Shown here piece by piece: positions 1 to 60,185 of a DNA stretch of 64,000 nucleotides (position 1 is its first letter; each line of letters begins with the position of its first letter). A program made the position numbers and the translations under genes. Location of the stretch: positions 742,355 to 806,354 of the forward strand of contig NW_025963802.1 of NCBI RefSeq assembly GCF_023055435.1, written 5' to 3'. The notes under the pieces were generated by a model that was not told the origin of the DNA, did not search any database, and saw nothing but the letters and a program-made list of their open reading frames with translations. This DNA is from Haliotis rufescens. Taxonomy: Eukaryota.

Positions 1-29
1 TTGCTGGCGAGACAAGGTGAAATGGGGTT

Positions 30-240
30 TAACGCCATGTTCAAGTGTGGTGTGGTGTGGTGTGGTGTGGTGTGGTGTGGTGTGGTGTACCTCAGACTTT
101 TGCCTGTTTTATAGTCCTAGCCCACTTAGATACCATGCCACAGTTTAACATGAATACCCCACTCCGACACAGTAAGCGAATCCAAGCTGACCAGTCCTTG
201 TTTTATCCCCTAAATGACGAGAGCCGGGGAGGGTAACTAG
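30..240 (-). mobile_element. Microsatellite-tailed interspersed repeat (copy 1, with a (TGTGG)n tail)
   Basis: Positions 100-235 (tacctcagacttttgcctgttttatagtcctagcccacttagataccatgccacagtttaacatgaatacccc...) match the reverse complement of 8990-9200. The ORFs 45..236(+) and 8893..9153(-) both read MPQ(F/L)NM.TPLRH, a mirror of this repeat. Confidence 0.55.
46..88. repeat. (TGTGG)n microsatellite, about eight units
   Basis: Direct reading. Confidence 0.95.
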
Positions 241-504
241 TACAAACTTTTAATGTCTTGATATATAAACAGGGGCTCAAACCACCCTTATGCTCTCCAG
301 GCAGGCGCTCTATCCACCACCAGGAAGACAGTCCTTTGTTGCAGAAAGCTGTGATAGGTTGCCATAGCTACTATATCCCAGAAGGTGGCAGAGTTCACTT
401 CATCCTCTATCACTATTACAGTCAAGTCTACAAGATGCTGTGGTTGACATTAGATTGACGTGGTCTTCAGCTCTCCATTGTGAAGAAACCAGGTGTTGTC
501 TCAG

Positions 505-2424: not shown

Positions 2425-2540
2425 TTTGTTGCTTAATGACACACTCAGCAATATTCCAGCTATAATACGGCAGTCTGTAAATAATTGAGTCTGGACGAGA
2501 CAATCCAGTGACTGACATGAGCATCAATCTGTAACTTTCA
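2425..2540 (-). mobile_element. SINE-A fragment (NHP2 intron 3)
   Basis: Reads cacactcagcaatattccagctataatacggcagtctgtaaataattgagtctggacgagacaatccagtgactgacatgagcatcaatc. Confidence 0.55.
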
Positions 2541-2654
2541 CATGGTTACAACAAATGAATTACGGTATAAAACCATTTTGTGTTACACAAGACTTAATGT
2601 GATGATACACCTAATATCTGCTAAGATAGGCAATTACCATGTTCATGTTAACAG

Positions 2655-2945
2655 TGAGTGAGTGAGTGAGTGAGTTTGGTTTAACGCTGCTTTTAACAGT
2701 ATTCCAGTTATATCACAGCGTGTCAGCTTAATGTGGGAGGAAAGCCCAAAGTGATGTAAGTCTCAGATGTTTACCACTTCAGTGAAACCCATGAGCACGG
2801 GTATGGTGCTGACAAACCTAGAAACATAATCAGGGCGAACTGGGATTAGAACCCACAATCATAGGTTTCTGGCGTGCCCAAGGGACACAACTCTGCACAG
2901 CGAATCACGGCGCCTTAGACGACTGGTCCACCGGTGCCCCCCAAC
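2655..2945 (-). mobile_element. SINE-C copy (tRNA-derived head ggcccagtcgtctaaggc..gggttcgaatccc; shares its 3' domain with SINE-B), NHP2 intron 3
   Basis: The reverse complement matches the 43693 copy. The plus strand starts (gagt)n...tttggtttaacgctgcttttaacagtattccagttatatcacagcgtgtcagcttaatgtgggaggaaagccc. Confidence 0.75.
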
Positions 2946-3079
2946 CCTGCATCTTAACAGTTTATATTATATTTAATTACTTGGATTAACAGAACCCAGT
3001 GGTTAAGTGAACGCTCTTTCAGTCTACAATATTCCAGCTCCATCACGGCAGCATGTACATGATCCGAGTCTGGACCAGA

Positions 3080-3260
3080 CAAGCCCCAGTGCCTGAGTGA
3101 GCTTGGTTTTACGCCGCTTTTAGCAATATTCCATCAATATCACTTGGGGAGAGAAACCAGAAATGGGCTTCACATATTGTACCCATATTGGGCATCGAAC
3201 CTGGGTCTCGGGGGTAACAAACAAACGCTTCAACCACCAGGCTCACCCCACCGCCCAACC
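3080..3260 (-). mobile_element. SINE-B copy (tRNA-derived head, (ACTC)n tail), NHP2 intron 3
   Basis: The reverse complement matches ggcggtggggtgagcctggtggttgaagcg...gggtacaatatgtgaagcccatttctgg...tgatggaatattgctaaaagcggcgtaaaaccaagctcactca. Confidence 0.7.
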
Positions 3261-3319
3261 AGTGAAGAAATGATCCATGCAACTGTGACATGTAGCAGAG
3301 ACTGGTCAGCTGGACTTAC

Positions 3320-3827: not shown

Positions 3828-4097
3828 GGTTTGGTTGGTTTGTTGTTTGACGCCGCACTCAGCAATATTCTAGCTATATGACGGCGGTCTGTAAATAATC
3901 GAGTTTGGACCAGACAATCCAGTGATTGATATCATGAGCATCGATCCACACAATTGGGATCCATGACAGTGCATCAACCAAGTCAGCGAGCCTGACCACC
4001 CGATCCCGATAGTTGCCTCTTACGACAAGCATAGTCGCCTTTTATGACAAGTATGGGTTGCTGAAGACCTATTCTACCCCGGATCTTCACGGGTCCA
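3828..4097 (-). mobile_element. SINE-A copy (tail GTTTG-rich on the plus strand, i.e. (CAAA)n on the element strand), flanked by an 11-bp TSD ccaaagaaagt; lies in NHP2 intron 2
   Basis: This is the full-length consensus-like copy. The direct repeat ccaaagaaagt occurs at 3817-3827 and 4098-4108. It shares the domain cgccgcactcagcaatattccagctatatgacggcgg, which is the reverse complement of the 3' domain of SINE-B and SINE-C. Confidence 0.75.
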
Positions 4098-4397: not shown

Positions 4398-4575
4398 TAG
4401 GGATCAGGTGGTCAGGCTCGCTGACTTGGTTGATGCATGTCATCGATCCCAATTGCATGGATCGATGCTCATGATGTCAATCATTGGATTGTTTGGTCCA
4501 GACTCGATGATTTGCGGACCGCCATCATATAGCTGGAATATTGCTGAGGGTGGCGTTAAACAACAAACAAACAAA
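4398..4575 (+). mobile_element. SINE-A copy in the opposite orientation (NHP2 intron 1)
   Basis: The reverse complement matches SINE-A. It ends ...ccgccatcatatagctggaatattgctgagggtggcgttaaacaacaaacaaacaaaaac. Confidence 0.7.
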
Positions 4576-7589: not shown

Positions 7590-8935
7590 TCAAATCACCT
7601 AGTGTGTGCACGATCTCACCATGCTGTAGATCTGATAGAGTGATCGTCACATTATGAAGTGATCAGAACGTGTTATATCACCTAGTGGGTGATCACAACA
7701 TGCTATATCACCTAGTGTGTGCACGATCTCACCATGCTGTAGATCTGATAGAGTGATCGTCACATTATGAAGACCTAGCGCGGGTGACCATAATAACTAT
7801 GCTTGTGTACATCATAATGGGTGATCAAAATATACTGCATCTTATCGTGGGTGATCACAACCTTTTATTCAACTAGCGGGTGTTGAAAACATGCTACACC
7901 ACCAAGCGGGTTATGACAACATTCTATATTCACCTATCGGGTAAAAAACATACCATGATACATCACCTAGTGGGTGATCACAACATGCTATATCACATAG
8001 TGGGTGATCACAACATGCTATATCACCCAGAAGTGATCAGAACGTGTTATATCGCCTAGTTGGTGATCACATCATGATATATCACACAGTGGGTGATCAC
8101 AACACGCTATATCACCCAGAAGTGATCAGAACGTGTTATATCGCCTAGTGGGCGATCACAACATGCTTTATAACCTAGTGGGTGATCACAACACGCTATA
8201 TCACCAAGAAGTGATCAAAACGTGTTATATCACCTAGTGGGTGATCACAACATGCTATATCACCCAGAAGTGATCAAAACGTGTTATATCACCTAGTGGG
8301 TGATCACATCATGATATATCACACAGTGGGTGATCACGCTATATCAACAAGAAGTGATCAAAACGTGTTATATCACCTAGTGGGTGATCACAACATGCTA
8401 TATCACCCAGAAGTGATCAAAACGTGTTATATCACCTAGTGGGTAATCACAACATGCTATATCACCTAGTAGGTGACCACAACGTGCTATATCACACAGA
8501 AGTGATCAAAACGTGTTATATCACCTAGTGGGTGATCACATCATGATATATCACACAGTGGGTGATCACAACACGCTATATCACGTACTATGTGACATAG
8601 TGGTTTGTTTGTTGTTTGACGCTTCACTCGGCAATAGTCCAGCTAAATGACGGTCTGTAAATATTCGAGTCTGGACCAGACAATCCAGTGATCGACATCC
8701 TGTGCATCGATCCACGCAATTGGGACACGATGACATGCATCAACCAATTTTAAGTCAGCGAACCTGACCACCCGATCCCGTTAGTCGCCTCTTGCGACAA
8801 GCATAGTCGTCTGTTTGGGCAAGCATGGGTTGCTGAAGACCTGTTCTACCCCAGATCTTCGCGGGTCTCACATAGTGGGTGATCACAACACGCTACATCA
8901 CATAGTGGGTGATCACCAAATAATACATCACATAT
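7590..8935. repeat. 30-bp satellite (unit about gtgatcacaacatgctatatcacctagtgg, alternating with a ...cccagaagtgatca(a/g)aacgtgttatat variant, so a 60/90-bp higher-order unit), interrupted by a SINE-A
   Basis: About 40 tandem units with a regular alternation of two or three unit variants. The palindromic core GTGATCAC (containing TGATCA) recurs in every unit. The array lies in the NHP2-PUF60 intergenic region. Confidence 0.85.
8600..8876 (-). mobile_element. SINE-A copy inserted into the 30-bp satellite, with a 9-bp TSD acatagtgg
   Basis: The satellite unit ...gtgacatagtgg is interrupted by gtttgtttgttgtttgacgcttcactcggcaatagtccagc...gatcttcgcgggtc. The satellite then resumes with tcacatagtgggtgatcac. 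Confidence 0.75.
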
Positions 8936-8939
8936 ATAT

Positions 8940-9243
8940 CTTCTAGCGTGTGTGTGTGTCTGTGTGATTCAGCTCGCAGAGCCGGACGTCGGTGGCTCGA
9001 TACCCTGGCACAGTCATGTACCAATAGACGTTTACAGCTGGTATTTCTTCTTACCCTGGCTGGCGTTCGCCATAAAGGAGATATAACGAGGACTTGTCGG
9101 CTTGGAGTTAGTATTCCGTGTCTGAGTGGGGTGGTCATGTTCAACTGCGGCATGGTATCTCAGTGGGCCAGCACTATAAATCGGGCATAAGCCCGGACTA
9201 TCAAAAACAGCTGCACACACACACGCACGCACGCGCGCGCATG
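8940..9243 (+). mobile_element. Microsatellite-tailed interspersed repeat (copy 2, with a (CA)n(CACG)n(CG)n tail), immediately upstream of the mariner MITE
   Basis: Shares the segment catgttcaactgcggcatggtatctcagtgggccagcactataaatcgggc plus a CA/CACG-rich tail with the copy at 27465-27600. Confidence 0.55.
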
Positions 9244-9245
9244 TA

Positions 9246-9629
9246 CGAGGGGCGTTCAATAAGTTTTGCAACTTCAATATAAGACCAAGTCGCAGAATAT
9301 CTGGGCTGTAGGCTAAGTCTGGGCTGTAGGGTGGGTGATTTAACTGTTCGAACCCAGACTTAGCCCCCACTGACTTTTTCCTGTTCCGGCAAATGAAATC
9401 TGCCCTACGTGGAAGACGCTTCCAGGATGACGAGGACATAACGGCTGCCAAAGAGGCGTGGTTGGAGGGCCAATCTGCGGATTTCTATAAAAGTGGTATT
9501 AAAAGCTTGAAGGACAAATGGAATAAGTGTATTGAGGTGAATGGAGATTATATTGAAAAATAAAAGTGCAAAAGATATTCTGCGACTTGGTCATATATTG
9601 AAGTTGCAAAACTTATTGAACGCCCCTCG
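9246..9629. mobile_element. Mariner-derived MITE (internally deleted mariner) with 58-bp terminal inverted repeats and a TA target-site duplication
   Basis: Segment 9246-9303 (cgaggggcgttcaataagttttgcaacttcaatataagaccaagtcgcagaatat) is the reverse complement of 9572-9629. TA flanks both ends at 9244-45 and 9630-31. The interior, read on the plus strand, encodes the mariner transposase C-terminus NPDLAPTDFFLFRQMKSALRGRRFQDDEDITAAKEAWLEGQSADFYKSGIKSLKDKWNKCIEVNGDYIEK*. The adjacent HPPYSPD part is readable only on the minus strand, which points to a small internal inversion. Confidence 0.8.
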
Positions 9630-10329
9630 TACGTCGCTGTGTCAGTGGCCTAGTCTTGAACACGACATTAAACACCATTTTTATATATCAGCTAGCTAGC
9701 GCATCACCAGTGCACCAGTGTAGGCATTCCAATTGAGAATATTGTCCAAGCACCAGTGTTTGAAATAGACATCGGCCCGTAGGCCCGAGGCCGACAGATT
9801 TGTTCTCGCGCTGATAGTTTTAAATTTCAGCAGGCCCTTAAGGCCTGCAGTTTATCTAAGTAATTATTTATTTAGCATTATTTAAGTAATGTGACACATA
9901 ACATTCATATTTATAAACAGTACGATTAGACCATTCAAATAGTGTATGACATGTAGTCGCAAAGATGTTTTTCAAGCTGATAATTTCCTGATAAATATAG
10001 GCTTCATCTATCACCACCGAGTCTCTGGGAACTGGGTGTGATAGCAGTAAACGATTCTGGTTGACTGGTTGTGTCTTGTAATTTATATTGCAAGAGTGCC
10101 TCCCTACTTCAGCTAAAACGCCTACTGTTATCCACTGGGCCTACAGTTTGTTTTTTTCCACTGGGCCTACAGTTTGTTTGTTTTAAAATGTGCTGTCCCT
10201 TAATGTTCTCTGTTTACTCTGCTGAGTTTCAGACACTGCCTAGCGCCCAGTAAAATGAGAATCGATTGGTCACCGTTTCTGATTGTGTCCCAGCACAATG
10301 TGTGCGGAGCAGTTCTGATGCTGTCAACC

Positions 10330-15900: not shown

Positions 15901-16553
15901 AATCCAAAGCTTTTACACTAAGTAGTGCTGGTTCCTTTTCGGGCTGTAGGCCCATGTATGCCAAACTCTTGCTTTCTGTTCCAGGCGAGACGTTCAGTTC
16001 CAGATGATGTGCAAGAAGACTCCTATATGCCAATTACTAATGATTTCTTTCTCTTCTGTTTCTATGTTTTTCATACTGGTTTAGAAGCACTAAGTGTCGT
16101 CACCTATGAGCCAGGTTAATGACAGCTTCTGTCCCTGATCAGGCCCCTCAGCCCACTAGTAGGGCAAAAACAGAGGCCTAGCATACACCACGTTAACTGC
16201 GGTAAACATGTTTATGTGAAGTACAGCTTTTTCATCAAATTGTCACTTGTTTCTGGGTTTTAACCTTGTCTACCTCTATTCCTTGGTTGATTCAGGAAGC
16301 CATCGTGTCTGTCTTTACACATTGCATTCAACTTTGCCGCTCGTTGACTTTCAAATTGAGAAAAGGGACATGATTTGGTTGAGAATTTGGGTGTAGCAGG
16401 ACGGGTGAGAATTGGTTTTAGTCTTGAGTTATTTTTAGTTGTGTTCAGTATCCAAATTTCTGCCGGAATGTATGAAGCCAGGTTTGTTGGTAAGACAGAC
16501 ATGGATAGGCTTCAAGTTGTTGACTTTGACTTACTAGTATATTATTGCCACAG

Positions 16554-16756
16554 ATGATGATGAGCTGTTTGCTCCTCAAGCGGACCAGACAGGGTCTGTT
16601 CTGGAGGGTCCGGGTGCGAAGAGGGAGATGAAACCTTTCAGTCTGCCAAAATTAGGATCATCACAACAAGATTCCATAGCAAGAGCCAAGAAGTATGCAA
16701 TGGAGCAAAGCATTAAGAGTGTTCTTGTCAAACAGACAATAGCTCATCAACAACAA
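16554..16756 (+). CDS. PUF60: PUF60 coding exon ([68 protein letters not shown])
   Basis: The segment [24 protein letters not shown] is nearly identical to vertebrate PUF60. Acceptor is cacag at 16549-16553 and donor is caa|gtaaga. Confidence 0.85.
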
Positions 16757-16847
16757 GTAAGAAGTTACATAGTCCTTTTAGTTTTAGTTTATTACATGAC
16801 CCCAGTGGGATGTTGGTGTAGGTCCCCTGTTCCCTCGCAAGAGATGA

Positions 16848-17022
16848 GTCACATGATCAGGTGGACAGGCTCACAGACTTGGTTCATGCAGGTCATCATA
16901 TCCCAATTGCATGGGTCGGTGCTTGTGATGTCAATTACTGGATTGTCTGGTCCAGACTTGATTATTTACAGACTGCCATCATATTGCTGAAATATTGCGC
17001 AGTGCGGCATTAAGTAAACCCT
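16848..17022 (+). mobile_element. SINE-A copy (opposite orientation) 92 bp downstream of a PUF60 exon
   Basis: Reads ggtggacaggctcacagacttggttcatgcaggtcatc...gactgccatcatattgctgaaatattgcgcagtgcggcattaag. The six-frame ORF 16628..16990 is a read-through of the exon plus this SINE. Confidence 0.7.
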
Positions 17023-17235
17023 ATTCTTGTCATGTCAATCATCTAGACATCACATGTGACATGAAGATTTTTTACAATCATGCTTTCGGGTGTCCTGGTT
17101 CTTATGTGATTAATTTCAGTTTTCATGCTGACAGAACAATACTAAGTTTGGTGTGACAATATAGCGCAATATATATTTCCATGTTATTGTTATTTTTGTT
17201 GTGAAGTATGAAAACCTGTTCAATTTTGTTTTTAG

Positions 17236-17294
17236 CAAATGCAGAATTTCCAGAACACTGTTCAAAGACAACAAGCTTTAGCACTAATGTGCAG
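17236..17294 (+). CDS. PUF60: PUF60 coding exon (QMQNFQNTVQRQQALALMC, phase 2 out)
   Basis: Acceptor is ttttag and donor is ag|gtatgg. It matches PUF60 ...QRQRALAIMCR. Confidence 0.8.
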
Positions 17295-17586
17295 GTATGG
17301 TTTTCTTCATCACTACTATACAAAACTTCGGAGGATGAGTAATTCCTATGTACCACGCTGCAGTTAGGATATATTAATTTGAGCTTTCAAAATTTTAATG
17401 TTTAATTTTAATTGATATTGTAGCCTATTCTTGCAGCTGCAACTTCAACAACTAGTTCAAAGTCTGAATTTAGTGATTTTTTAATAGTAGGTTGTAAGTT
17501 TTAAGATCAGACCCTCCAGTGGATTTTTTCTGTGCTTTGTATGTAAAACTGGAACAAGTCTAAAAGAATATTTGATTGTCTTTCAG

Positions 17587-17800
17587 GATTTACGTAGGCA
17601 GCATTAACTTCGAGATAAAAGAAGACACCATCAAGCAAGCTTTTCTTCCGTTCGGCCCCATCAAAAGCGTCAATCTGTCATGGGACCCCATCACCAACAA
17701 ACACAAGGGATTCGCATTTATCGAATACGACGTTCCAGAAGCGGCCCAACTAGCCTTAGAGCAGATGAATGGCGTTATGATTGGAGGCCGCAACATCAAG
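17587..17800 (+). CDS. PUF60: PUF60 coding exon, RRM1 ([72 protein letters not shown])
   Basis: Very high identity to PUF60 RRM1, with RNP2 IYVGSI and RNP1 KGFAFIEY. Acceptor is tttcag and donor is aag|gtggct. Confidence 0.9.
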
Positions 17801-19212
17801 GTGGCTTGATATTTGACCGTGATACTTCATATTCCCTTAGAAGGACATACCCTCTGGTTTAGTTTGGCACTTCGATAAAATCATTTCATGCGTTTGCACA
17901 CCAGATCTAGACTAAAAACATTTTCAAATAAATAAAGTTCCAATTTTTTTAGAATGTTTCAAGGGGATAAGGCTCTTAAGGCTCTAGCAGTTATCTTGAG
18001 AAATGTTTTGCAAACACATGATGTAGTCACACAAAGAGGCAGATTTCAAAATCAATTTACCTGTAGTTTTGTTGCTTTTTGAATTTGTGAGGCGCCTATG
18101 AGTTTACAAATAAAAGCTTGGTTTTGTGAACTAAAGAAATCCAGTAAGTATATCTATACATATGCAAACGTCCTGCATTCTAAGAAATTGGCATTAGTTT
18201 TAAGGTTTGTCATTATTTTAGAATAGTTTGATTAATCTGCATCTTTCTACCTGCTTTCAAGACCAACAAAATGATGAAATGTATTCAAATAATTTGACAA
18301 TTGATCATTTATTTTCTTAACACATCATTTGTGTTTTCTTTCAATTTTGTTGAAGAGAAAAAACGTGTCTTGAAGGCCACCTTTTTGGGTATGTCCTACT
18401 AAGGCGAATAATAATTAAGGCAAACAATTACAATTATTTTGTTTATATCACTATCCAGCTGATTCTTCACTAGACTGTTTGTTCTTTTGTGTTTTCTTAC
18501 CCGTAGTTCTGACCAATATAATGCTAGAAAAATGAGATATTTTGAAGGACTATTTTTGGTTCTATAATCACAATGTATGCTAATCTACCATAAACCATGC
18601 TCTCGAATTTATTATCTTTACATGCGATAATATTAGACCTGAAGCTGTCCAAAGACGAAGAGCGCCAAGAGATTTGGCTGAAGGGAGGTAACTCTATGTA
18701 TTAGCCAGCTGACACTTGAGGGTGGAATGCAATGGGTGTAGTGTTTCAGAAAAAAACTTCGTACCTACGAGTTTTTTTATTATAAAACACAAACTACAAC
18801 TTAAAACAAGTATTAGTTCTTTGTTGAGCTTATGTTTACAATATTCTTTTGTCAAGATGGCCTCCAGAAAAATATGTAAATTCAGGGTATATGCCCTGGT
18901 ATATGTAAAAGTGATAATACAAGCTATTAATTGAATCAATTTTTGCAGTATGAAAGGTTGTTAAGACTGAAATATCAAGGTTTCATTCATTCTTTCATCA
19001 TGAACATTAATGTTTTCCCTACCATATAGAGTTGGTATTGCAGTAAGATACTGTTCTAGCCTTTTTCCCATTTAATGATTTGCACACCTGCATGTATGAC
19101 ATTTTCAACTGCTTAATTAAGTTGTGTATGGGACTGTTTTGTTGTTGGAAGGTGTGTACCATCAGTTAAGGATGTTTTGATGTTAATAGTTATTTTGTGT
19201 ACATTGTTTCAG

Positions 19213-19340
19213 GTGGGACGCCCCAGCAATATGCCACAAGCTCAACCAATCATTGAACAGTTAGCAGCAGAAGCCAAGAATTATAATAGGATATATGTAG
19301 CATCAATACACAGTGATTTATCCGAGTCTGACATCCAAAG
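19213..19340 (+). CDS. PUF60: PUF60 coding exon ([42 protein letters not shown], phase 2 out)
   Basis: Matches PUF60 [42 protein letters not shown]. Acceptor is tgtttcag and donor is ag|gtaggt. Confidence 0.9.
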
Positions 19341-19596
19341 GTAGGTTGTTTGCAGAACACTGATGTTATTGCAGGTTTGAGAAAATTCCCTTGTGTTGCT
19401 GCTTGGGTGATTGATTTCTAACAGTACAGGGCTAGAAAACTGGAACTTTCTGTATGGTTGGTAATCTTCTGGAAGTTAAAAACAAGGTTATACAACATTA
19501 TGGCTGCTAACTTTCATAAAACATATTACAAGAAACTAGATAAAAGGAGGTATGCGACAATGGATGATGTTTGTGTCCTAAACATTTGAAGTACCT

Positions 19597-20290
19597 TATT
19601 TTCTTGAGTATAGTGCGCACCCATGTATAATGCGCACCCCCCTCTAGCGGGTTCAATATTTTGGAAAAAAAGAAATTTGAATATTATGCGCAGAATTTTT
19701 TTACACCGTACCCTTTCAGCGAAGTCCGGCAAACAAAAGAGTGCTGAGAAACTTTGTCAGTACAAATTCGAAATTTGAGATAAAAAATCACCAGACATGT
19801 TTATTTACTGTTTAAATAGTATTTATTGTTCTGCTAGGCATTGTTTTATATTTAGGGATTAAGATTACCTTGCGTATTTGCGTAGATGTATCCATTCTCT
19901 GTCAACTAAAGTTTGTTTCAAGGCGTCAATAGCAGTATTCTGACCGTGGTTGCTGTTAATGACGGTGAGTTGTGCGATCTTCCGATCGCTTCACACACGA
20001 TTTCGCCGAAATTAATAAAAACAATATTATAAGGAAGTTTGAATAAAATCAATGAAATAAGTTACAAACATAAGTCCAGATATACATAGAACGCTTTTTA
20101 TAGCCAGACAGTGTAATTACATAATTATTTTGCGTACTTCAGTATGGATTTGTTGACATGGTGTTTCTTGCTCACGGTAATGTCTTTCCATGGGGGAAAA
20201 AAACATCCAAACTCATAATTCGTGTATAATGTGCACCCCCTTCTACACGGCTGTGTTTTTTCGAAAAAAAGTGCGCACTATACTCAAGAA
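19597..20290. mobile_element. Candidate MITE-like element (about 690 bp) with TIRs of about 24 bp, in a PUF60 intron
   Basis: The left end tattttcttgagtatagtgcgcac is the reverse complement of the right end gtgcgcactatactcaagaaaata. A subterminal motif, catgtataatg(c/t)gcaccccc(c/t)tcta...ttttt(gg/cg)aaaaaaag, is present in direct orientation near both ends. Confidence 0.45.
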
Positions 20291-20560
20291 AATACGGTAG
20301 TCCATTGATGAATGGCATCAGATCCCTGTCCCATGTAGATTCTCTGATTTTCTTTCCATCATAATTAAAGTTGTATTTAGGCCAGCTTAATTTCTTTAGC
20401 TGAATTGTCCTACTGAATCCTGTTGAACAGATATTTTTCATAAAGTGAGGCTTGGATTGATTTTTGTCTCATTTTGATTGTAGTGAAAGTTGACAGAATC
20501 TTGCAACATTGCTGCTGAGATGAGAGAATATTAAGATTTAATTGCCTGTTTGTGTTCCAG

Positions 20561-20632
20561 TGTATTTGAAGCTTTTGGTCGTATTCAATCATGTAAACTA
20601 GCCCTAGATGGATCCAAACCAGGAAAACACAA
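20561..20632 (+). CDS. PUF60: PUF60 coding exon, RRM2 part (SVFEAFGRIQSCKLALDGSKPGKH)
   Basis: Matches PUF60 [24 protein letters not shown]. Acceptor is gttccag and donor is aa|gtgagt. Confidence 0.85.
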
Positions 20633-20875
20633 GTGAGTATCAACTTTTTATTCTGGAGGCGAAATATTCCATTGCAAGAAGAATATATCCATATTCTTAT
20701 GTCACTATTGTAATAGTTTCTTAATTTGAAGACATTTCTTGGTATGCAGAAAGGTTGGTTTTGTATAACTAATGAAACATTTTCCAAAAGATAAATCCGT
20801 TCAAAGAAAGAAAATGATATGCATACAGACCATTTTTCACAGAAACCTGTATTTATACAATTCTGTCTTTGTCAG

Positions 20876-20978
20876 AGGTTACGGCTTCATCGAGTATGAC
20901 ACCCCCCAAGCAGCTCAAGATGCGGTTTCCTCCATGAACCTATTTGATCTCGGTGGCCAGTTTCTCAGAGTTGGCAGG
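20876..20978 (+). CDS. PUF60: PUF60 coding exon, RRM2 part ([35 protein letters not shown])
   Basis: Matches PUF60 [35 protein letters not shown]. Acceptor is tttgtcag and donor is agg|gtaagc. Confidence 0.9.
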
Positions 20979-21126
20979 GTAAGCCCTTTGAGCCTTGGTA
21001 AATGTTTTCTCAAAAGAATTATTGATGAAGGTTTACATTTTGACTTTTGATATTTTGATTGATATCTTATGGAGTACTTGATTTAAAACGATGAGCCCAA
21101 TGTTAATTTTTTTGTTGTTTTGTTCA

Positions 21127-21261
21127 GGCTATCACTCCCCCAGATGCTCTACAGGCACCATCAGGCCCTGGAAGCATGCCCACAGCTGCTGCTGTTGCAG
21201 CTGCCGCTGTCACGGCCAAGATCACAGCATTAGATGCACAGCAGGCTGCAGTTAACCTGGT
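21127..21261 (+). CDS. PUF60: PUF60 coding exon (Ala/Pro-rich linker [44 protein letters not shown])
   Basis: Corresponds to PUF60 AVTPP...[24 protein letters not shown]. Acceptor is tgttcag and donor is ctg|gtaagt. Confidence 0.8.
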
Positions 21262-21474
21262 AAGTTGTCTTTGTTTCATCTTTAACAGCCAGTTTTGCTG
21301 GAGACTTCACACTTCAGAAGTTATCTGAAAACAGTTGGGTTTCTGACAGTTTTCCTTCATGAGCAACTAAATTAACCTTGATAATGAGGTATTGCTGATG
21401 TGATTATGAAGTTGATGAGTTTGTCAAATTAGTGCTAAGCCATTGTTTTAATCTGTCATCACTTCTTGTTTCAG

Positions 21475-21700
21475 GCTCCACCAGGGCTCGCCATGCCGAC
21501 AACACTAGGAAATGGTGTGGGGTCACCTGATGTGAATAGAGGTGGTGTGATACAGCCAGCTGGACTAGCCATGCCTACTGTGTTGGGGCAGGCTCCTGTT
21601 TTGTCTGCTCCCTCACAAATTGCTCCACCCACTGTTATCAGTATGCCCTCCGTTGCTAGTATTCCTGCTCCACCACCGCCAGCACCAAGCAATCCTCATG
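21475..21700 (+). CDS. PUF60: PUF60 coding exon (low-complexity A/P/G/V linker, phase 1 out)
   Basis: In-frame continuation APPGLAMPTTLGNGVG...PAPPPPAPSNPH, analogous to the vertebrate PUF60 linker. Acceptor is tgtttcag and donor is catg|gtaagt. Confidence 0.7.
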
Positions 21701-22321
21701 GTAAGTTGCATGCAAGCTGTGTAGAAACAACCTACTTGCTGTTCACTTCATCAATATCAATAAGAACCAATTAGCACAATAGTACCAGGGGATGCCGGGT
21801 TAGAATTACTCCCCAGCAACCCATGCTGGTCGTAAGATGCGACTTAATAGATTGGGCCATCAGACTTCGTCTCGGTTGAAGGCGTGTCCTTATTACCCCA
21901 ATTGTGTGGATCATTGCTACCAATATTTGCCGCTGGATTGTCTGTTTTGATACTCAGTTATTTACAGGCTCCCCTCAGGTAGCTGTAATATTGCAGAGTG
22001 GTGTTAACAACAAACAAAGCCCAATAGGAACCCTGTACCCAATGTTGTGAAAATGTGTCACCTGGCTGATTGTATGTAATTGTCACTTCGATCACACTAT
22101 GACCCAGTACTGAATACTTACCCATACCTAAATAGCTGAACTTTTGCTGATTCTACAGAAATAGTAGTGAGTTTCATTAAAAGTTATCATGAAGTAGGGG
22201 AGAGGAGGTTGCTGATCTCTGCCTCAGTTGCATTCTCATTGTAACAAAGTCATGCCACGAAGACCTGCTGTTGGTTCCATTTGGGTGAAATGTTGGATAT
22301 TTCAGTAATTGTTCCTAATTG

Positions 22322-22552
22322 TTTGTTTGTTGTTTAATGCCGCGCTCACAATATTCCAGTTATGAAGGCGGTCTGTAAATAATCGAGTCTGGACCAGACA
22401 ATCCAGTGATTGACATCGTTAGCATCGATCCACGCAATTTGGATACGATGACAACCAAGTCAGCGAGTCTTACCAACCGATCCCGTTAGTCGCCTCTTAC
22501 GGAAAGCATGGGTTGCTGAAGACCTATTCTACCCCGGATCTTCACGAATCTA
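22322..22552 (-). mobile_element. SINE-A copy with a 7-bp TSD ctaattg (PUF60 intron)
   Basis: The direct repeat ctaattg lies at 22315-22321 and 22550-22556. The body reads gtttgtttgttgtttaatgccgcgctcacaatattccagttatgaaggcggtctgtaaataatcgagtctggaccagacaatccagtgattgac... Confidence 0.75.
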
Positions 22553-22603
22553 ATTGCTCATAAAGTATAAATGATGCTTTAATTATCTTCTTTTGCTTTC
22601 CAG

Positions 22604-22800
22604 CCACAGCAGCATCTGTTGCTTCCGCCCTGTCAGCGATGGCACCTGATGGGAAGGATGGGAAGAATGGGAAGAAGGAAGGAAAGCAGAACAAGCTGGA
22701 CGACGAGTCAAGTCAGAGTCTGGCTCAGCAAGAAAACATGAAGATCAGTGGCAGTAATGCCAGGCATATGGTCATGCAGAAACTGATGAGGGCACCTCAG
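22604..22800 (+). CDS. PUF60: PUF60 coding exon (...[24 protein letters not shown])
   Basis: Matches PUF60 [25 protein letters not shown]. Acceptor is tttccag and donor is cag|gtacat. Confidence 0.85.
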
Positions 22801-23033
22801 GTACATACATATATATCACCACAGATTTAGATATGATATTGTTTTGAGAGTCCACCCTCTCTTTCAAGCAATTTGAGACTTTGAATGTTCATATGGCTGG
22901 TAAATAATTATGTGCTGAGATTACATTTCTTGAAAATAACCGTCTAATTTGGAATATTGTGTTAAAAGAAAAGGTTATTGCTTATCTTAAAGTTGCACAC
23001 AGGGTGAAACTAATATTTGTTGTGTTCGTGCAG

Positions 23034-23223
23034 GCCCGCGTGATGGTGCTAAGGAACATGGTTGGCCCCGAGGACCTCGATGATGAGCTGGAGACTGAGG
23101 TGACAGAGGAGTGTGGCAAGTTCGGAGTTGTTAACCGAGTTATCATCTATCAGGAAAAACAGAGTGAAGAGGAAGATGCAGAAATTGTTGTCAAGATCTT
23201 TGTGGAGTTCACCGCACAGGATG
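23034..23223 (+). CDS. PUF60: PUF60 coding exon, UHM/RRM3 part ([63 protein letters not shown])
   Basis: Near-identical to the PUF60 UHM domain ([57 protein letters not shown]). Acceptor is tcgtgcag and donor is atg|gtaaga. Confidence 0.9.
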
Positions 23224-24459
23224 GTAAGATTTTCTGTATTTTAACAGTGTCAGAATTACAGTTACATACTTGCAGTGTCAGAAATTAAATAACTCTTACT
23301 GGGTTTTTATTATCTCTGATATTTTTGAGCCCTCACTTTCAATGTTGGTTTAAAAAAAAATATGTGCAGGTCCCAAGATGTTTAAGTTTTGCTTCCATAT
23401 TCTGTTATTGATGGAAGTTAACCCACAACTAGATTTTTGATTATGATAGAAGACGTACTGTTTAATGAAAGATTTGTTAACTCTTACATGTGTGTACTGT
23501 GAGGATAATATGATCACTCCATGGAAAGTTCAATGGAAGTAAAAAATACAAGAAAACATGCAAAAATTTGTCTTCGTCATCAAGAGCCTTAAACTGTGTC
23601 TGCAAAACACTTCTGTATGACATCTTCCACAAATCCCGACAGTCTCACACAACATTTTATGACCCTGAAAATAAACATTTACCTGCAGACAGCAATTTCG
23701 TAGTTGCCAACTGGCCCAAATTTTACGACTTTGTTACAATTTGCAACTGCAATACTAAAATATGATTTATTCCTTAATTCATACGAATAATATACCTTCA
23801 GCTGTCAAAAACACTCCATTTGTATTTTGGAAAGTTACTGTAATTCAAATAAAACCTAAGAGATTAAGTTGTCAAATGCAGGGATTCCTTGATATTCGTG
23901 CATAGTATTAACACTAATTCAGTGCGATTGAAAATCGCGTACATCTTTCAATAGTTTTATCAGCATTGACACTCTCATTTTCACCTACAAACATTGAAAA
24001 AGTTGTATTGCGTTAATAAGTCCATATTGATTTCATTTGATATGGTCAGACACCCTGTCTTTGATACAGTACACACTACAGACGGAAATAAGACAGCGAA
24101 ATTGACGAAAGCACTGGATTAGGAATGTAAATTATATATTTTTTGCCAACAAACTGTAACACCATTTGCAACTGTCGCTATTTTATGTCATCGCTTGTGA
24201 TATATTAAATTAAAATTTTAACAGACATTGTCGAAAACTAGAAATTTGCAATTAAATGAACAGCTGTTGCCTGTAAACCTGCCTTATCTATTATTGTTCT
24301 CGCAAATAATTCCTCCTAAAGTCACAATGAACTGAAATACATAAGTATTAATGTATTTTCTCCTAAACTAGACAATGAACAGAAATATTAATACTAATGC
24401 ATTTTGTTGTTGATACTAATGCCAATATTTTAAAGTATTCAAAGTGGAATAATTAATGT

Positions 24460-24812
24460 TACCGTATTCGATGTAATAAGCGCCCAGGGCGCTCTCAAAA
24501 TTAGAAATAGGGGGCTCTTATTAGAATGTTATTTTGGTGGGGGCAAAAAAGAGTTGAAAGATAAATTTCGTGGTTTATGCTGACAGCCTGAAATGTTTAT
24601 ATACAACAGATATATTTTTCCAGAATTAAATGCCCATAATTAAGGGTGCATAACACACACGAGTGCATATTATACGCGAATAAATAAGTCTTGTGTACAT
24701 TGTTCACTCGGAAGGGGTGCTGATTGGGATTGTTCAATAGCCAATATATAAGCAAATGTCGCCGTGGGCGCTTATTAGAGCCGGGTGCTTATTACGTCGA
24801 ACACGGTATATT
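24460..24812. mobile_element. Candidate foldback/MITE (about 350 bp) in a PUF60 intron
   Basis: The segment 24462-24495 (taccgtattcgatgtaataagcgcccagggcgc) is the reverse complement of 24780-24812 (gccgggtgcttattacgtcgaacacggta), at roughly 85-90% identity. Confidence 0.4.
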
Positions 24813-25174
24813 CTAGTAACATAAATTGCAACATAATTTGAGTCACAAATGCCAAATATCAAATACAGTTTCCACTATGGCAAGACAAGATGTCTCAGCA
24901 CACGCCAAAATATCTCATTGCTTTTAGACCAGGGAGGATTTTCTCTCATAGGTAAAAAATTCCAAGTATAATCCTTGCAAATGAGTTTCGAAATCACATG
25001 GCTTTATTGTACCTTGGATGATTCATAATTGTTGAGCTTTGGTGTCCTGACTGGAAGATGGTAACAAAATACTAATTGTAATGTTTGGGGAAATTGGCAG
25101 CTACTCAATTTTATCAAAGTCGGTTACTTGTTATGCCCCGCATGATATGAGCCTCTGAAACATTGTTATTTCAG

Positions 25175-25284
25175 GTCTAGAACGAGCCATTCAGTCCCTA
25201 AATGGCCGGTTCTTTGGTGGGAGAATTGTGAGAGCAGAAAAGTATGATCCTGACATGTTTGAAGCTCAAGATCTGTCTGGTTGA
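25175..25284 (+). CDS. PUF60: PUF60 terminal coding exon (GLERAIQSLNGRFFGGRIVRAEKYDPDMFEAQDLSG*)
   Basis: Matches PUF60 ...[33 protein letters not shown]. Acceptor is tatttcag and the stop TGA is at 25282-25284. A candidate poly(A) signal aataaa lies at about 26326. Confidence 0.85.
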
Positions 25285-27399: not shown

Positions 27400-27600
27400 C
27401 AGTGTTTTTGTATTTGTATGTTGTAAGACGAGTTCACTTGGGGATAAACAGGAACAGTTGCGTATTCATGTTAAACTGCGGCATGGTATCAAAGTTAACT
27501 AGCACTATAAAACCGGCTTTTGTCAGGAGCATTACAAGCAGAGACACGCAGGCACGCACACAGGCACACAAGCACGCACACAGATTTGGTCCGTACGAGA
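27400..27600 (+). mobile_element. Microsatellite-tailed interspersed repeat (copy 3)
   Basis: Contains catgttaaactgcggcatggtatcaaagttaactagcactataaaaccggc followed by a cacgcaggcacgcacacaggcacacaagcacgcacacag tail. A tRNA-like motif plus (CA)n at 27090-27218 may be the head of the same element. Confidence 0.45.
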
Positions 27601-27789
27601 AAATCAGCTACACATACACGTGCATGCACGTCGCTATAGAAGTGACACAACTGAAGCGACGTTTTTACATTTCACCTCGCCTTTTACTCTTGACGGATTG
27701 AACAAAATACAAAACAAAGTTTCGACCAGGAACATTCTTCCATTCAACCAAACATTCACACAGCCACACATATTCATAAGTCTTATTAC

Positions 27790-46940: not shown

Positions 46941-47769
46941 ACCCTGTTGATGATGTTAGGGGGAGTTCTGGGGGGGGGGATAGGAATGCAGTTAGCTGTT
47001 TCTCACTTCGAGGTTTTCAAAGACCCTTGTGCCACCCAGCACAGCACGGGTTATGCCCAGATGGCTAACGTCATACCTTTAACCCCTCCACAACATTTGA
47101 ACTCGTCAATAGATCACCGAAACCTGGCCCTTCCCCAATAGTAGACTGCCCAAAGGAGAAACCATGGCAGTGCTCAGGAATTCTTCTCTACCTGACCCCT
47201 CTCTCCGGGTGAACTCAAGATAAGCAACCCAACCTATAACCCTCAGCTGGAATAGATGTATCGGGATATCTGGTTATAACTGACCACAGTGGTGCTGTTA
47301 CCCCCTATTCATCATTAAATCTCTGTGCGCCACCTACAGTGCGCACCTTGCAAACTTGGCACCTCTGGTGGCCTGGCACTGGATGTAAGGTCAAATAACC
47401 CCAAACACTCTGTCCCCACTGGTGATATGTCACCAACCTATGTGTCAATTACGGTAGCATTTAAAGTATCTCACGTTGGATTGGGTTTCATGAGAGAAAA
47501 GTACAACAAAACTACCGAGACTCGCATACATTTCGTATCCGACACACGACACATACATGGAATAACATGTTGACGGTAAACTTCCACGCTAGCCGCACAA
47601 GGACTATGAAAACGCGTCAGAGGACGAAACAAGAACAACAAATGTCACCCAAACTCAGTACCCCACAATGACTTGCACAACAGGAACGGACTAAGATGAA
47701 AGGTCACTGAGATTTCGTTAAACAAACACATCAATAGCATACAACACGCGACACATACCTAGAATGGTG

Positions 47770-48215
47770 GCAGGTTTCTTGTCGAGGAAATAATGCCGCC
47801 GAGATGGGTTCTTGTCGAGGAAATAATGCCGACGAGATTGGTTCTTGTCGAGGAAATAATGCCGTCGAGATGGGTTCTTGTCGAGGAAATAATGCCGACG
47901 AGATGGGTTCTTGTCGCGGAAATAATGCCGACGAGATGGGTTCTTGTCGAGGAAATAATGCCGACGAGATGGGTTCTTGTCGAGGAAATATTGCCAACGA
48001 GATGGTTTCTTGTCGAGGAAACGATGCCGACGAGATGGTTCCTTGTCAAAGAAATGGATTGGTGATTCACTTAAAAGGTGGACATAAGCTGACGAGATGG
48101 AGTCTTGTCGAGGAAATAATGCCGACGAGATGGTTTCTTGTCAAAGAAATGGATTCGTGATTCATTTGAAAGGTGGACATAAGCTGACGAGATGGAGTCT
48201 TGTCGAGGAGATGGA
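47770..48215. repeat. 33-bp satellite (unit cgagatgggttcttgtcgaggaaataatgccga, about 10 copies, plus two longer variant units of about 100 bp at 48040-48215)
   Basis: A period of 33 bp equals 11 codons. This produces the repetitive ORFs on both strands (MPTRWVLVEEI repeats and their reverse). Confidence 0.85.
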
Positions 48216-52656: not shown

Positions 52657-52833
52657 GAGTGAGTGAGTGAGTTTGGTTTTACGCCGCTTTTAGCAATATT
52701 CCAGCAATATCACGGCGGGGGACACCAGAAATGGGCTTCACACATTGTACCCATGTCGGGATTCGAACCCGGGTCTTCGGCGTGACGAGCGAACGCTTTA
52801 ACCACTAGGCTACCCGACCGCCCCTCGTCATTT
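52657..52833 (-). mobile_element. SINE-B copy
   Basis: Same family, about 200 bp downstream of the previous copy. It ends ...gcgaacgctttaaccactaggctacccgaccgcccc. Confidence 0.8.
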
Positions 52834-54975: not shown

Positions 54976-55901
54976 TTGGACCGTCTCCTGCATCGATACA
55001 ATGCTACACAGACCACAGCTGACCTTGCTCGGAGCGGTCGTCCTAGGGTCACCACACCTCGACAAGATCGGCAGATTACCCGTCAACACCAGCGACATCT
55101 GTTCCTAAATGCAAGTGAAAGTGCTCGACAGACCATAGGAACAAATAATCGACACATTAGCCGTGACACTGTGATCCGACGTCTCCGTTCCAACAACCTC
55201 AGATGTCGCCGACCAGCACGTCGTCCTGTTCTCCAACCACAGCATCGACAAGCACGACTTCAGTGGGCACAGGGTCATCGCAATTGGCGTCATCGTGAGT
55301 AGAGGCGTGTCATCTTCTCTGATGAAAGTCGCTTTTGTGTCTCCCATGCAGACGGAAGAGTCAGAATTTGGCGGCGTCGAGGTGATCGTTTCGCTGACAG
55401 AAACGTTGTGGAAAGGGATCCATAGGGTGGACCTAGCGTCATGATATGGGCAGGGATTGGACTTAATTCGAGACTTGGACCCATGTGCTTTCTGAATGTT
55501 GGTTAAGGTCGGGGACACGGCGTCACTGCTCAGCGGTATATCGACCAAGTGATCAGACCCCACGTTGTTCCATTTTTTGCACAACATCAACAACACATTT
55601 TCAAGCAGGACAACGCTCGTCCCCATGTTGCCAGAGCTACCATGGCCTTTCTGCAACAACACAACATCTACCGTGGCCAGCCTTCAGCCCTGATCTGAAC
55701 CCAATCGAACACTTGTGGGATGAGGTTCAAAGGCGTCTGCACAATGTGCGCCCAGTCCCTACAACTGCCGATGAACTACGCACAGCTGCTCTGGATGTGT
55801 GCAGGAGGATCCATAGGGCCTTCACAAATCGTCTGATCCACTCAATGTACAGGAGATGTGTGGCAGTGATCAATGCTAATGGTGGTCACACCAGGTATTG
55901 A
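54976..55901 (+). pseudogene. Tc1-like (DD34E) transposase pseudogene with internal stops and at least one frameshift
   Basis: Reading 54976 onward gives ...ARSGRPRVTTPRQDRQITRQH... (HTH), then ...RLQWAQGHRNW..., then VIFSDESRF (first D), FKQDNARPH (second D), and the hallmark AFSPDLNPIEHLWDEV (third acidic residue). In-frame stops follow RHRE, RDP and NVG, and there is a frameshift between the DNARPH and PDLNPIE blocks. An upstream in-frame TAA shows the N-terminus is lost too. Confidence 0.8.
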
Positions 55902-58184: not shown

Positions 58185-60185
58185 TCTCAGGTGGAATCAT
58201 GATGGCAAGCTGTGACTATCTGATCTCAGGTGGAATCATGATGGCAAGCTGTGACTATCTGATCTCAGGTGGAATCATGATGACAAGCTGTGACTATCTG
58301 ATGTCAGGTGGAATCATGATGACAAGCTGTGACTATCTGATCTCAGGTGGAATCATGATAACAAGCTGTGACTATCTGATCTCTGGTGGATTCATGATGG
58401 CAAGCTGTGACTATCTGATCTCTGGTGGAATCATGATGACAAGCTGATGACTATCTGATCTCAGGTGGAATCATGATGACAAGCTGTGAATATCTGATCT
58501 CTCGTGAAATCATGATGACAAGCTGTGAATATCTGATCTCTCGTGAAATCATGATGACAAGCTGTGACTATCTGATCTCTCGTGAAATCATGATGACAAG
58601 CTGTGAATATCTGATCTCTCGTGAAATCATGATAACAAGCTGTGACTATCTGATCTCTGGTGGATTCATGATGGCAAGCTGTGACTATCTGATCTCTGGT
58701 GGATTCATGATGACAAGCTGATGACTATCTGATCTCAGGTGGAATCATGATGACAAGCTGTGACTATCTGATCTCAGGTGGAATCATGATAACAAGCTGT
58801 GACTATCTGATCTCAGGTGGAATCATGATGACAAGCTGTGACTATCTGATCTCTGGTGGATTCATGATGACAAGCTGTGACTATCTGATCTCTGGTGGAA
58901 TCATGATGACAAGCTGTGACTATCTGATCTCTGGTGGAATCATGATGACAAGCTGTGACTATCTGATCTCAGGTGGAATCATGATGACAAGCTGTGACTA
59001 TCTGATCTCAGGTGGAATCATGATAACAAGCTGTGACTATCTGATCTCAGGTGGAATCATGATGACAAGCTGTGACTATCTGATCTCAGGTGGATTCATG
59101 ATGGCAAGCTGTGACTATCTGATCTCTGGTGGAATCATGATGACAAGCTGTGACTATCTGATCTCAGGTGGAATCATGATGACAAGCTGTGACTTTCTGA
59201 TCTCAGGTGGAATCCTGATGACAAGCTGTGACTATCTGATCTCTCGTGAAATCATGATGACAAGCTGTGACTATCTGATCTCTCGTGAAATCATGATGAC
59301 AAGCTGTGAATATCTGATCTCTCGTGAAATCATGATAACAAGCTGTGACTATCTGATCTCTGGTGGATTCATGATGGCAAGCTGTGACTATCTGATCTCT
59401 GGTGGATTCATGATGACAAGCTGATGACTATCTGATCTCAGGTGGAATCATGATGACAAGCTGTGACTATCTGATCTCAGGTGGAATCATGATAACAAGC
59501 TGTGACTATCTGATCTCAGGTGGAATCATGATGACAAGCTGTGACTATCTGATCTCTGGTGGATTCATGATGGCAAGCTGTGACTATCTGATCTCTGGTG
59601 GAATCATGATGACAAGCTGTGACTATCTGATCTCTGGTGGAATCATGATGACAAGCTGTGACTATCTGATCTCAGGTGGAATCATGATGACAAGCTGTGA
59701 CTATCTGATCTCAGGTGGAATCATGATAACAAGCTGTGACTATCTGATCTCAGGTGGAATCATGATGACAAGCTGTGACTATCTGATCTCAGGTGGATTC
59801 ATGATGGCAAGCTGTGACTATCTGATCTCTGGTGGAATCATGATGACAAGCTGTGACTATCTGATCTCAGGTGGAATCATGATGACAAGCTGTGACTTTC
59901 TGATCTCAGGTGGAATCCTGATGACAAGCTGTGACTATCTGATCTCAGGTGGAATCATGATGACAAGGTAATGAATATCTGATCTCTCGTGAAATCATGA
60001 TGACAAGCTGTGACTATCTGATCTCTCGTGAATTCATGATGACAAGCTGTGACTATCTGATCTCTGGTGAAATCATGATGACAAGCTGTGACTATCTGAT
60101 CTCTCGTGAAATCATGATGACAAGCTGTGACTATCTGATCTCTCGTGAAATCATGATGACAAGCTGATCCCTTGTGGAATCATGA
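58185..60185. repeat. 39-bp satellite (unit ctgatctcaggtggaatcatgatgacaagctgtgactat, about 51 copies) with higher-order punctuation
   Basis: A period of 39 bp equals 13 codons (MMTSCDYLISGGI). The variant subunits are tctcaggtggaatc, tctctggtggattc and tctctcgtgaaatc. A 1-nt-longer unit (caagctgatgactat) recurs at 58447, 58721, 59424 and about 59971, spaced 274 bp (seven units plus one) or 703 bp (18 units plus one). These break the artifactual ORFs into 82-, 82-, 225- and 173-aa pieces. Confidence 0.9.

Follow-up and report, generated by a model that had tools for sequence, protein, structure and literature searches.

A TA-inserted, internally deleted mariner-type element with a probable strand-switch repair scar at its deletion junction

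Mos1 of Drosophila mauritiana is a mariner with TIRs of ~28 bp, and its internal deletion derivatives, which are attributed to gap repair, are common. In humans, the mariner Hsmar1 (cecropia subfamily) has given rise to the 80-bp MITE MADE1. MADE1 is a non-autonomous mariner derivative that arose by internal deletion and kept its TIRs and TA duplications (PMC3814204). Goblin, a Stowaway-like MITE of Aedes aegypti, derives from the Tc1/mariner element Ozma and carries 54-bp TIRs that hold inversely duplicated 3' subterminal sequence of this parent; its origin was ascribed to a template switch in the course of synthesis-dependent strand annealing (SDSA), with end joining as the last step (Yang et al. 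2013, PMC3814204). Here we describe a miniature mariner-type element that can be compared with these systems.

We observed that positions 9246-9629 of the window, by which we mean the whole 64-kb stretch of DNA analysed, hold a mariner-derived element of 384 bp. Its ends and flanks comprise the following features.

9244-9245, no strand: left copy of the TA target-site duplication, read directly from the letters.
9246-9302, plus strand: left TIR of 57 nt, CGAGGGGCGTTCAATAAGTTTTGCAACTTCAATATAAGACCAAGTCGCAGAATATCT, complementary to 9573-9629 at 56 of 57 positions.
9573-9629, minus strand: right TIR of 57 nt, matching the left arm at 56 of 57 positions.
9630-9631, no strand: right copy of the TA target-site duplication, read directly from the letters.

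When the two arms were compared over their 57 nt, the lone mismatch fell at TIR position 37. An earlier note on this DNA had reported perfect-to-near-perfect TIRs of 58 bp with TA at both ends; the near-perfect match and both TA copies are indeed there, and the length is corrected to 57 nt. An automated repeat search returned 60 nt at 98% for the TIR pair, since the match runs on through the palindromic TA and a single accidental G/C pair. A 30-nt TIR probe, allowing up to 3 mismatches, hit 2 sites in the window, namely the two ends of the element, and had no match in 100 dinucleotide-preserving shuffles. We rejected a chance palindrome or hairpin on the strength of these shuffles and of the mariner homology of the encoded peptide. 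The element thus has the two terminal marks of a mariner, a long TIR found nowhere else in the window and a TA duplication.

The sequence on either side of the element belongs to another dispersed repeat, with further copies at window positions 1-250 (minus strand) and 27420-27620. Within the first copy, the stretch 1-140 (minus strand) can be aligned with both flanks but has no counterpart of the 384-bp element; this alignment is approximate, running through a variable CA/CG-rich microsatellite. Cut-and-paste transposition placed the element in a TA inside this repeat, and the empty site before insertion would have read ...GCGCATGTACGTCGCTG... with a single TA. Both the anatomy of the element and its status as an insertion are shown by the sequence. 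Other repeats lie nearby: about 7650-8600 is taken up by a 30-bp satellite, and 8600-8870 by a SINE-like repeat of roughly 270 bp that has at least 8 copies in the window.

Between the TIR arms lies a core of 270 nt (9303-9572), the length that had been given for it before. The 3' part of a transposase gene fills most of it.

9353-9563, plus strand: 3' transposase remnant of 69 codons (PDLAPTDFF...NGDYIEK) with a TAA stop at 9561-9563, identified by translation and homology.
9564-9572, plus strand: 3' untranslated sequence of 9 nt from the stop codon to the right TIR, read from the letters.

Upon translation, the plus-strand frame 9351-9563 reads NPDLAPTDFFLFRQMKSALRGRRFQDDEDITAAKEAWLEGQSADFYKSGIKSLKDKWNKCIEVNGDYIEK and then stops. 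The core had been thought to encode the last 70 or so residues of a mariner transposase, which we can now put at 69 codons and the stop. The codon for the third catalytic aspartate is kept (GAC, 9372-9374, in PTD). On the minus strand, 9352-9311 encodes FEQLNHPPYSPDLA, as seen by translation and by tblastn. The HPPYSPD block had been described as legible only on the opposite strand, and this is the case, with the HPPYS codons in the spacer between two 13-nt repeats and the PDLA codons in the left of these repeats. Flipping the spacer on paper gives one continuous frame, FEQLNHPPYSPDLAPTDFF / FEQLNHPPYSPDLAPTDFFLF..., and a rejoined peptide of 79 aa. Two further ORFs, one of 139 aa on the minus strand (9032-9451) and one of 56 aa on the plus strand, are transposon debris and not genes; exact-sequence look-ups found neither of them on record.

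To place the element in a family, the rejoined peptide was compared with known proteins. In a PDB sequence search, it matched the last 77 residues of the transposase domain of Hsmar1/SETMAR (E 1e-20, 34/77 identical) and of the Mos1 transposase (E 5e-14, 31/77 identical), which bears out the mariner match that the earlier note had anticipated. Pfam returned DDE_3 below threshold for the 79-aa fragment (15.7 bits against a cut-off of 28.6). A weak score is expected here because Pfam's mariner model, Transposase_1 (PF01359), matched an upstream part of the protein in the relatives, and this part is deleted in the element. A match to DUF3567 was dismissed as spurious. In a large protein collection, 233 proteins matched the rejoined peptide at E <= 1e-5, the best of them at 70% identity.

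Two of these proteins led us to their loci, L001 and L005, both from one ENA metagenome assembly (ERZ25074796). The elements at these loci are 1.29-1.30 kb long and TA-flanked, and their TIRs, of about 36-40 nt, start with CGAGGGTAGTTCAATAAGT, or more fully CGAGGG(G/T)(C/A)GTTCAATAAGT; the TIR in the window has the CGAGGG start as well. Their ORFs match HTH_48 (PF17906, the HTH of Mos1), Transposase_1 (PF01359) and DDE_3. With one frameshift corrected, the L005 transposase (349 aa) can be aligned with Mos1 from one end to the other, over all 345 aa of Mos1 (E 7e-43). It shows TGDETW, LHDNAP and APSD in register, and the 34 residues between the last two aspartates make this a D,D34D protein. 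Of this triad, the element in the window has only the third aspartate left (PTD), the first two lying in the deleted part. Its peptide is 60-70% identical to the C-termini of the metagenomic mariners.

A second set of relatives was obtained by scanning metagenome contigs with the first 24 nt of the TIR. This retrieved L002-L004, three Ga0209781 contigs from one JGI sample, in which the outer 28-32 nt of the ends are identical to the TIR in the window, come directly after a TA and lead into 3' transposase DNA of ~69% identity. All four of the Ga0209781 ends are of the right-end type, and TA precedes every related end in L001-L004. Across L001, L005 and the Ga0209781 contigs, the internal DNA is about 67-69% identical to that of the element. 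No relative closer than ~70% in protein or ~69% in DNA was present in the collections searched. We conclude that L001/L005 and L002-L004 are sister families in other organisms and not the parent of the copy in the window. A common host with the Ga0209781 contigs found no support, as the window shares only transposon sequence with them. The same TIR scan gave zero matches in a bacterial/archaeal genome collection and in a viral contig collection, and we saw no sign of contamination or viral carriage in these empty scans. A literature search for the TIR string matched solely an unrelated Pseudomonas paper with a 12-mer.

Judged by its sequence, the element is best read as an internally deleted DD34D mariner of the Tc1/mariner superfamily, derived from a sister family of these relatives. 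An internally deleted Tc1/mariner origin had already been suggested, and it is upheld by the peptide homology and by full-length relatives that combine HTH_48, Transposase_1, TA flanks and a similar TIR start.

We then used the relatives to define what is missing. Mapped onto L001, the element lacks ~965 bp (about 0.9-1 kb), a loss that takes in most of the 5' UTR, the region for the DNA-binding domain and the codons of the first two catalytic aspartates. What is left is both transposase-binding ends and 69 of about 349 codons, in a remnant free of stops and frameshifts. The stop codon lies 66 nt from the end of the element, compared to ~65 nt in full-length L001, which shows that the right end still has its native surroundings. 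Searching the whole window with the 349-aa relative by tblastn recovered residues 280-349 in direct orientation (9351-9560) and residues 271-284 inverted (9352-9311). Neither blastn nor tblastn, including tblastn with this reconstructed relative, found any other mariner copy or fragment, or a full-length mariner, in the 64-kb window. The element is thus a non-autonomous, internally deleted copy that is unable to move alone; it could be mobilised only if a related transposase were made elsewhere in the genome.

The deletion junction itself, next to the left TIR, has a composite structure.

9303-9310, plus strand: filler GGGCTGTA of 8 bp at the deletion junction, part of a 13/13 direct repeat.
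9311-9323, no strand: left arm GGCTAAGTCTGGG, the reverse complement of the PDLA codons, from a 13/13 inverted repeat.
9311-9352, minus strand: 42-nt inverted copy of the codons FEQLNHPPYSPDLA, residues 271-284 of the 349-aa relative, at 14/14 identity by tblastn.
9353-9365, no strand: right arm CCCAGACTTAGCC, natively oriented PDLA codons with which the direct remnant starts, from the inverted repeat, translation and the L001 alignment.

From left to right, the segments run from the left TIR (...ATATCT) through the filler GGGCTGTA and the inverted GG CTAAGTCTGGG CTGTAGGGTGGGTGATTTAACTGTTCGAA to the direct CCCAGACTTAGCC CCCACTGAC..., and the last of these continues to the stop codon and the right TIR. 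Both short inverted repeats reported earlier are present and match at 13/13 (9311-9323 and 9353-9365), although the spacer between them measures 29 nt rather than 30. The 13 nt at 9300-9312 (TCTGGGCTGTAGG) are an exact repeat of 9318-9330, 13/13 in direct orientation at a spacing of 18. The microhomologies at the successive junctions are TCT (9300-9302), GG (9311-9312) and then 0-1 nt, so that they range from 0 to 3 nt.

By blastn, the inverted copy matches L001 at 3087-3045 in reverse orientation with 86% identity and overlaps the match of the direct remnant at 3076-3285. There are two copies of the 13 nt encoding PDLA, one direct and one inverted, and the residue ranges 271-284 and 280-349 overlap accordingly. 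Upstream of its FEQ codons, L001 has GAGTGCAAG (codons ...ECK), and the left arm is absent there. The doubling of PDLA and the absence of the left arm from L001 indicate that the segment is an inverted duplication made at the deletion junction. The earlier note had spoken of a 30-bp inversion that splits the transposase C-terminus; the HPPYS part is reversed as it said, but a duplicated PDLA, a left arm missing from L001 and a filler make this an inverted duplication instead. Next to the left TIR and its filler, 9311-9352 carries inverted 3' codons (271-284) that overlap the direct part, which is the arrangement expected of a strand switch. All of the sequence from the left TIR to 9352 is a bottom-strand copy of the parent's 3' part. 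The breakpoints are placed by reference to relatives whose identity to the element is 60-70% for the protein and about 67% for the DNA.

A true inversion was nevertheless considered, in which an ordinary deletion derivative later had ~30 bp flipped between pre-existing 13-nt repeats. The geometry fits, with arms of 13/13 around a 29-nt spacer, and the flipped spacer restores the continuous frame. The left arm, however, reproduces the PDLA codons exactly in reverse, at a place where the transposase should read ...RECK, and since L001 has its own sequence at this site, the arm cannot be taken for pre-existing coding sequence. The arm also abuts the deletion junction and the 8-bp templated filler, which makes one complex repair event more economical than a deletion, the creation of an arm and an inversion in succession. 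Moreover, no mechanism other than strand switching is obvious for an inversion over 13-bp repeats with a 29-bp spacer. We therefore consider a later inversion unlikely and favour an inverted duplication formed as the deletion arose.

Whereas the structure and family of the element can be observed, the repair mechanism and the origin of the long TIR are what we infer from it. The deletion probably arose when a full-length copy had been excised and its gap was being repaired, through interrupted SDSA, also called abortive gap repair. Yang et al. proposed this kind of history for Goblin. A strand extended from the left end would have quit its template once past the TIR and paired again, over 3 nt, with the opposite strand in the PDLA region. 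From there it may have copied 10 nt, slipped back 18 nt and copied 42 nt, reversing the FEQLNHPPYSPDLA codons, before it was joined at the PDLA codons to the strand from the right end. These steps would account for the 13-nt inverted repeat and for 50 bp of templated filler in inverted orientation. The long TIR might share this origin if the right end served as template for the inner half of the left TIR, a suspicion raised by the 57 nt of the element, compared to 36-40 nt in L001 and L005. Under the inverted-duplication model, the parent would be expected to read ...TTCGAACAGTTAAATCACCCACCCTACAGCCCAGACTTAGCCCCCACTGAC... without GGCTAAGTCTGGG upstream; at the junction, it would lack both GGCTAAGTCTGGG directly upstream of TTCGAACAG and the inverted segment. 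As regards the order of the steps, the single end product fits more than one sequence of events, and a two-step history, with a deletion and a later small rearrangement, gives an identical sequence. Taken as a whole, the explanation of the locus as a TA-inserted, internally deleted mariner with a probable strand-switch scar from gap repair is one that we hold with high confidence.

A related structure occurs in the metagenomic contig L004. At 2478-3047, this contig holds a 570-bp, TA-flanked, near-palindromic element made from the 3' end of a related mariner, with arms of 164 nt at 91% that both carry C-terminal transposase codons. This fold-back element indicates that strand-switch products recur in this TIR group. 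It also bears on the idea that the inverted duplication is an assembly or sequencing artefact from a chimeric or fold-back read. Library or long-read artefacts can yield small fold-back structures, which gives this idea its footing. The scar, however, is just 50 bp long and sits inside a coherent element with matching TIRs and a target-site duplication, its junction microhomologies are typical of repair, and the similar architecture of L004 comes from an independent data set. We regard an artefact as scarcely credible, and retain strand switching during repair as the probable source of the scar.

The element had further been labelled a MITE. As a structural term this is apt, given its 384 bp, its TIRs, its target-site duplication and the lack of a functional transposase gene; in the multi-copy sense the label is putative, the TIR probe and tblastn counting 1 copy in the 64-kb window. 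The copy may belong to an amplified and recently active MITE family that shares the scarred junction and is mobilised in trans by a full-length mariner of the host. Its TIRs at 56/57, the intact TA and a remnant without stop or frameshift suggest a young copy, its 384 bp are a typical MITE size, and the relatives that share the TIR include L004 as a second miniature derivative. On the other side stand the single copy in the window and the lack of a close copy in the protein, metagenome, bacterial/archaeal and viral collections searched. On balance, such a family is a realistic but tentative prospect.

A more ambitious version joins several of these ideas into one account. It holds that a young, still mobile MITE family exists in a mollusc-like host, that its 57-nt TIRs and inverted ORF piece stem from one Goblin-type event, that, taken with the L004 fold-back element, mariners with the CGAGGGGCGTTCAATAAGT terminus repeatedly give birth to miniatures by copying their 3' end onto their 5' end, and that the hairpin near the PUF60 promoter region might feed small-RNA pathways. 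We find this combination unlikely. If it were true, copying of 3' onto 5' ends in CGAGGGGCGTTCAATAAGT mariners would be a lineage-specific route of MITE birth.

Downstream of the element, homology mapping placed PUF60-like exons at 16553-25281 on the plus strand. The first mapped exon, at 16553, opens at a splice acceptor, and an ATG exon must therefore exist further upstream, with a position near 11.5 kb conceivable. The earlier note had put the element about 1.9 kb upstream of a candidate PUF60 ATG, a figure that is provisional in view of the unmapped exon. The best resemblance was to the gastropod Elysia marginata, with 89% identity in the RRM1 exon compared to 77% for human PUF60, which hints at a molluscan host; the protein collection searched contained no near-identical protein to these exons. 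The distance from the element to the first mapped exon is ~6.9 kb.

This position raises the question of co-option, whether for cis-regulation of the PUF60-like gene or as a precursor of a hairpin or small RNA. Copies of MADE1 give rise to the human miR-548 family. The element lies upstream of the PUF60-like gene, and its RNA, if made, is predicted to form a long hairpin with a 57-bp TIR stem (-169 kcal/mol, z = -14.5 compared to shuffles). Any element with long TIRs yields such a fold, however, and the hairpin says nothing on function. No sign of conservation or expression emerged, and ~6.9 kb lie between the element, in its setting of satellites and SINE-like repeats, and the first mapped coding exon. 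Co-option thus appears very improbable, and an ordinary transposon insertion remains our reading of the locus. Annotation of the region upstream of PUF60 should treat the element as a transposon and mask it.

Few features are as common in animal genomes as mariners with internal deletions and the miniature elements derived from them, and as one more of these the element has little wider import. Its junction, on the other hand, offers a clean case, at a single locus, of a transposon deletion whose breakpoint carries inverted, templated filler, and such scars have been used to attribute the origin of MITEs to strand switching in abortive gap repair. Should the host genome contain many copies that share this scar, together with their parent, this would be a second well-resolved MITE birth of the Goblin type, outside insects.

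Set against the known systems, the element shows likenesses of differing depth. With Mos1 it shares the protein family, TA targets and ends of the short-TIR kind, and its relative L005 aligns with Mos1 over the full length with the DD34D spacing; its own C-terminal identity is 31/77, and its TIR is about twice as long as that of Mos1 and unrelated in sequence. With MADE1 it has in common an internal deletion, both TIRs and TA, and its remnant is homologous to the SETMAR domain (E 1e-20). MADE1 keeps essentially the TIRs alone, whereas 69 codons of the ORF are left here. The comparison with MADE1 and Hsmar1-derived elements drawn in the earlier note is sound as an analogy but not as lineage, and with 34/77 identity to the Hsmar1-derived SETMAR domain, membership of the Hsmar1/MADE1 family was rejected.

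The likeness to Goblin goes furthest. Both are miniature deletion derivatives of Tc1/mariner elements, both have long TIRs, of 54 bp for Goblin and 57 nt for the present element, both carry 3' parental sequence inverted beside the left TIR, and both have short microhomology at their breakpoints. They differ in transposon lineage and host. In Goblin the inverted piece is subterminal, whereas here it is only 42 nt long, comes from inside the ORF and is accompanied by an 8-bp slipped filler, and the microhomology is 6 bp in Goblin compared to 0-3 nt in this element. Goblin is also a documented multi-copy family with a known parent, while the present element is known from one copy. In conclusion, the element is a further example of a well-known type with an unusually legible repair scar, for which Goblin, by analogy of structure, appears to be the closest published parallel.

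The mariner derivative, an internally deleted 384-bp element with TA flanks, lies within repetitive DNA. Its insertion site is the microsatellite of one copy of a dispersed repeat family, whose members share a conserved body (…CATGTTAAACTGCGGCATGGTATCT.AGTGGGC.AGCACTATAAA…) followed by a CA/CG-rich microsatellite. A short way upstream of the element we observed a satellite array built from 30-bp units of GTGGGTGATCACAACATGCTATATCACCTA, with higher-order periods of 59, 89 and 148 bp. A dispersed SINE-like repeat of ~270 bp is present in at least eight copies in the 64-kb window, at 75-86% identity.

Repeats in the window, by position
9040-9720; 1-250 (-); 27420-27620: dispersed repeat family, its 9040-9720 copy hosting the mariner insertion
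~7650-8600 and 8868-8934: 30-bp satellite array
8600-8870: SINE-like repeat
3832-4095; 62860-63094; 22321-22546; 543-715; 2424-2529: SINE-like repeat, other copies
4400-4572 (-); 16835-17004 (-): SINE-like repeat, minus-strand copies

The mechanical ORF list includes a 139-aa reading frame on the minus strand (9032-9451) that spans the left half of the mariner derivative together with its left flank. We rejected it as a gene: the frame consists of debris from a transposon and repeats, and no gene annotation is warranted.

Some SINE-like copies sit in introns of a PUF60/half-pint-like splicing-factor gene, for which exons encoding RRM1, RRM2 and the C-terminal UHM were placed on the plus strand (16553-25281). 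The nearest match to these exons is an Elysia marginata protein, with 89% identity in the exon encoding RRM1; the initial exon, which carries the ATG, was not found.

Further features were noted elsewhere in the window.

Other features in the window
54976-55901 (+): Tc1-like transposase remnant, two ORFs
52748-52819 (-): weak tRNA match
47759-48160: long tandem repeat with ORFs open in several frames
58747-59971: long tandem repeat with ORFs open in several frames, (MMTSCDYLISGGI)n, unit ~39 bp

The two tandem repeats are minisatellites rather than genes. The tRNA match scored 30.9 bits against an Rfam gathering score of 29 (E 0.018), and ARAGORN called no tRNA at this position; it may be the head of a tRNA-derived SINE or a pseudogene. 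The transposase remnant matched HTH_Tnp_Tc3_2 (E 1.3e-13) and DDE_3 (E 2e-6, including the motif SPDLNPIEHLWDE) and is a second Tc1/mariner-superfamily element in the window, unrelated to the mariner derivative.

A further mariner derivative was located in L004, a JGI metagenome contig with mariner ends that share the outer 28-32 nt of the abalone element's TIR.

Mariner derivative in L004
2478-3047: fold-back derivative, 570 bp, TA-flanked, nearly palindromic

At its centre, TIR-like inverted repeats recur as an inner pair (2679 and 2835; GGACAGGCGTTCAAAAAGTTCTG...), which may represent a nested or reiterated end.
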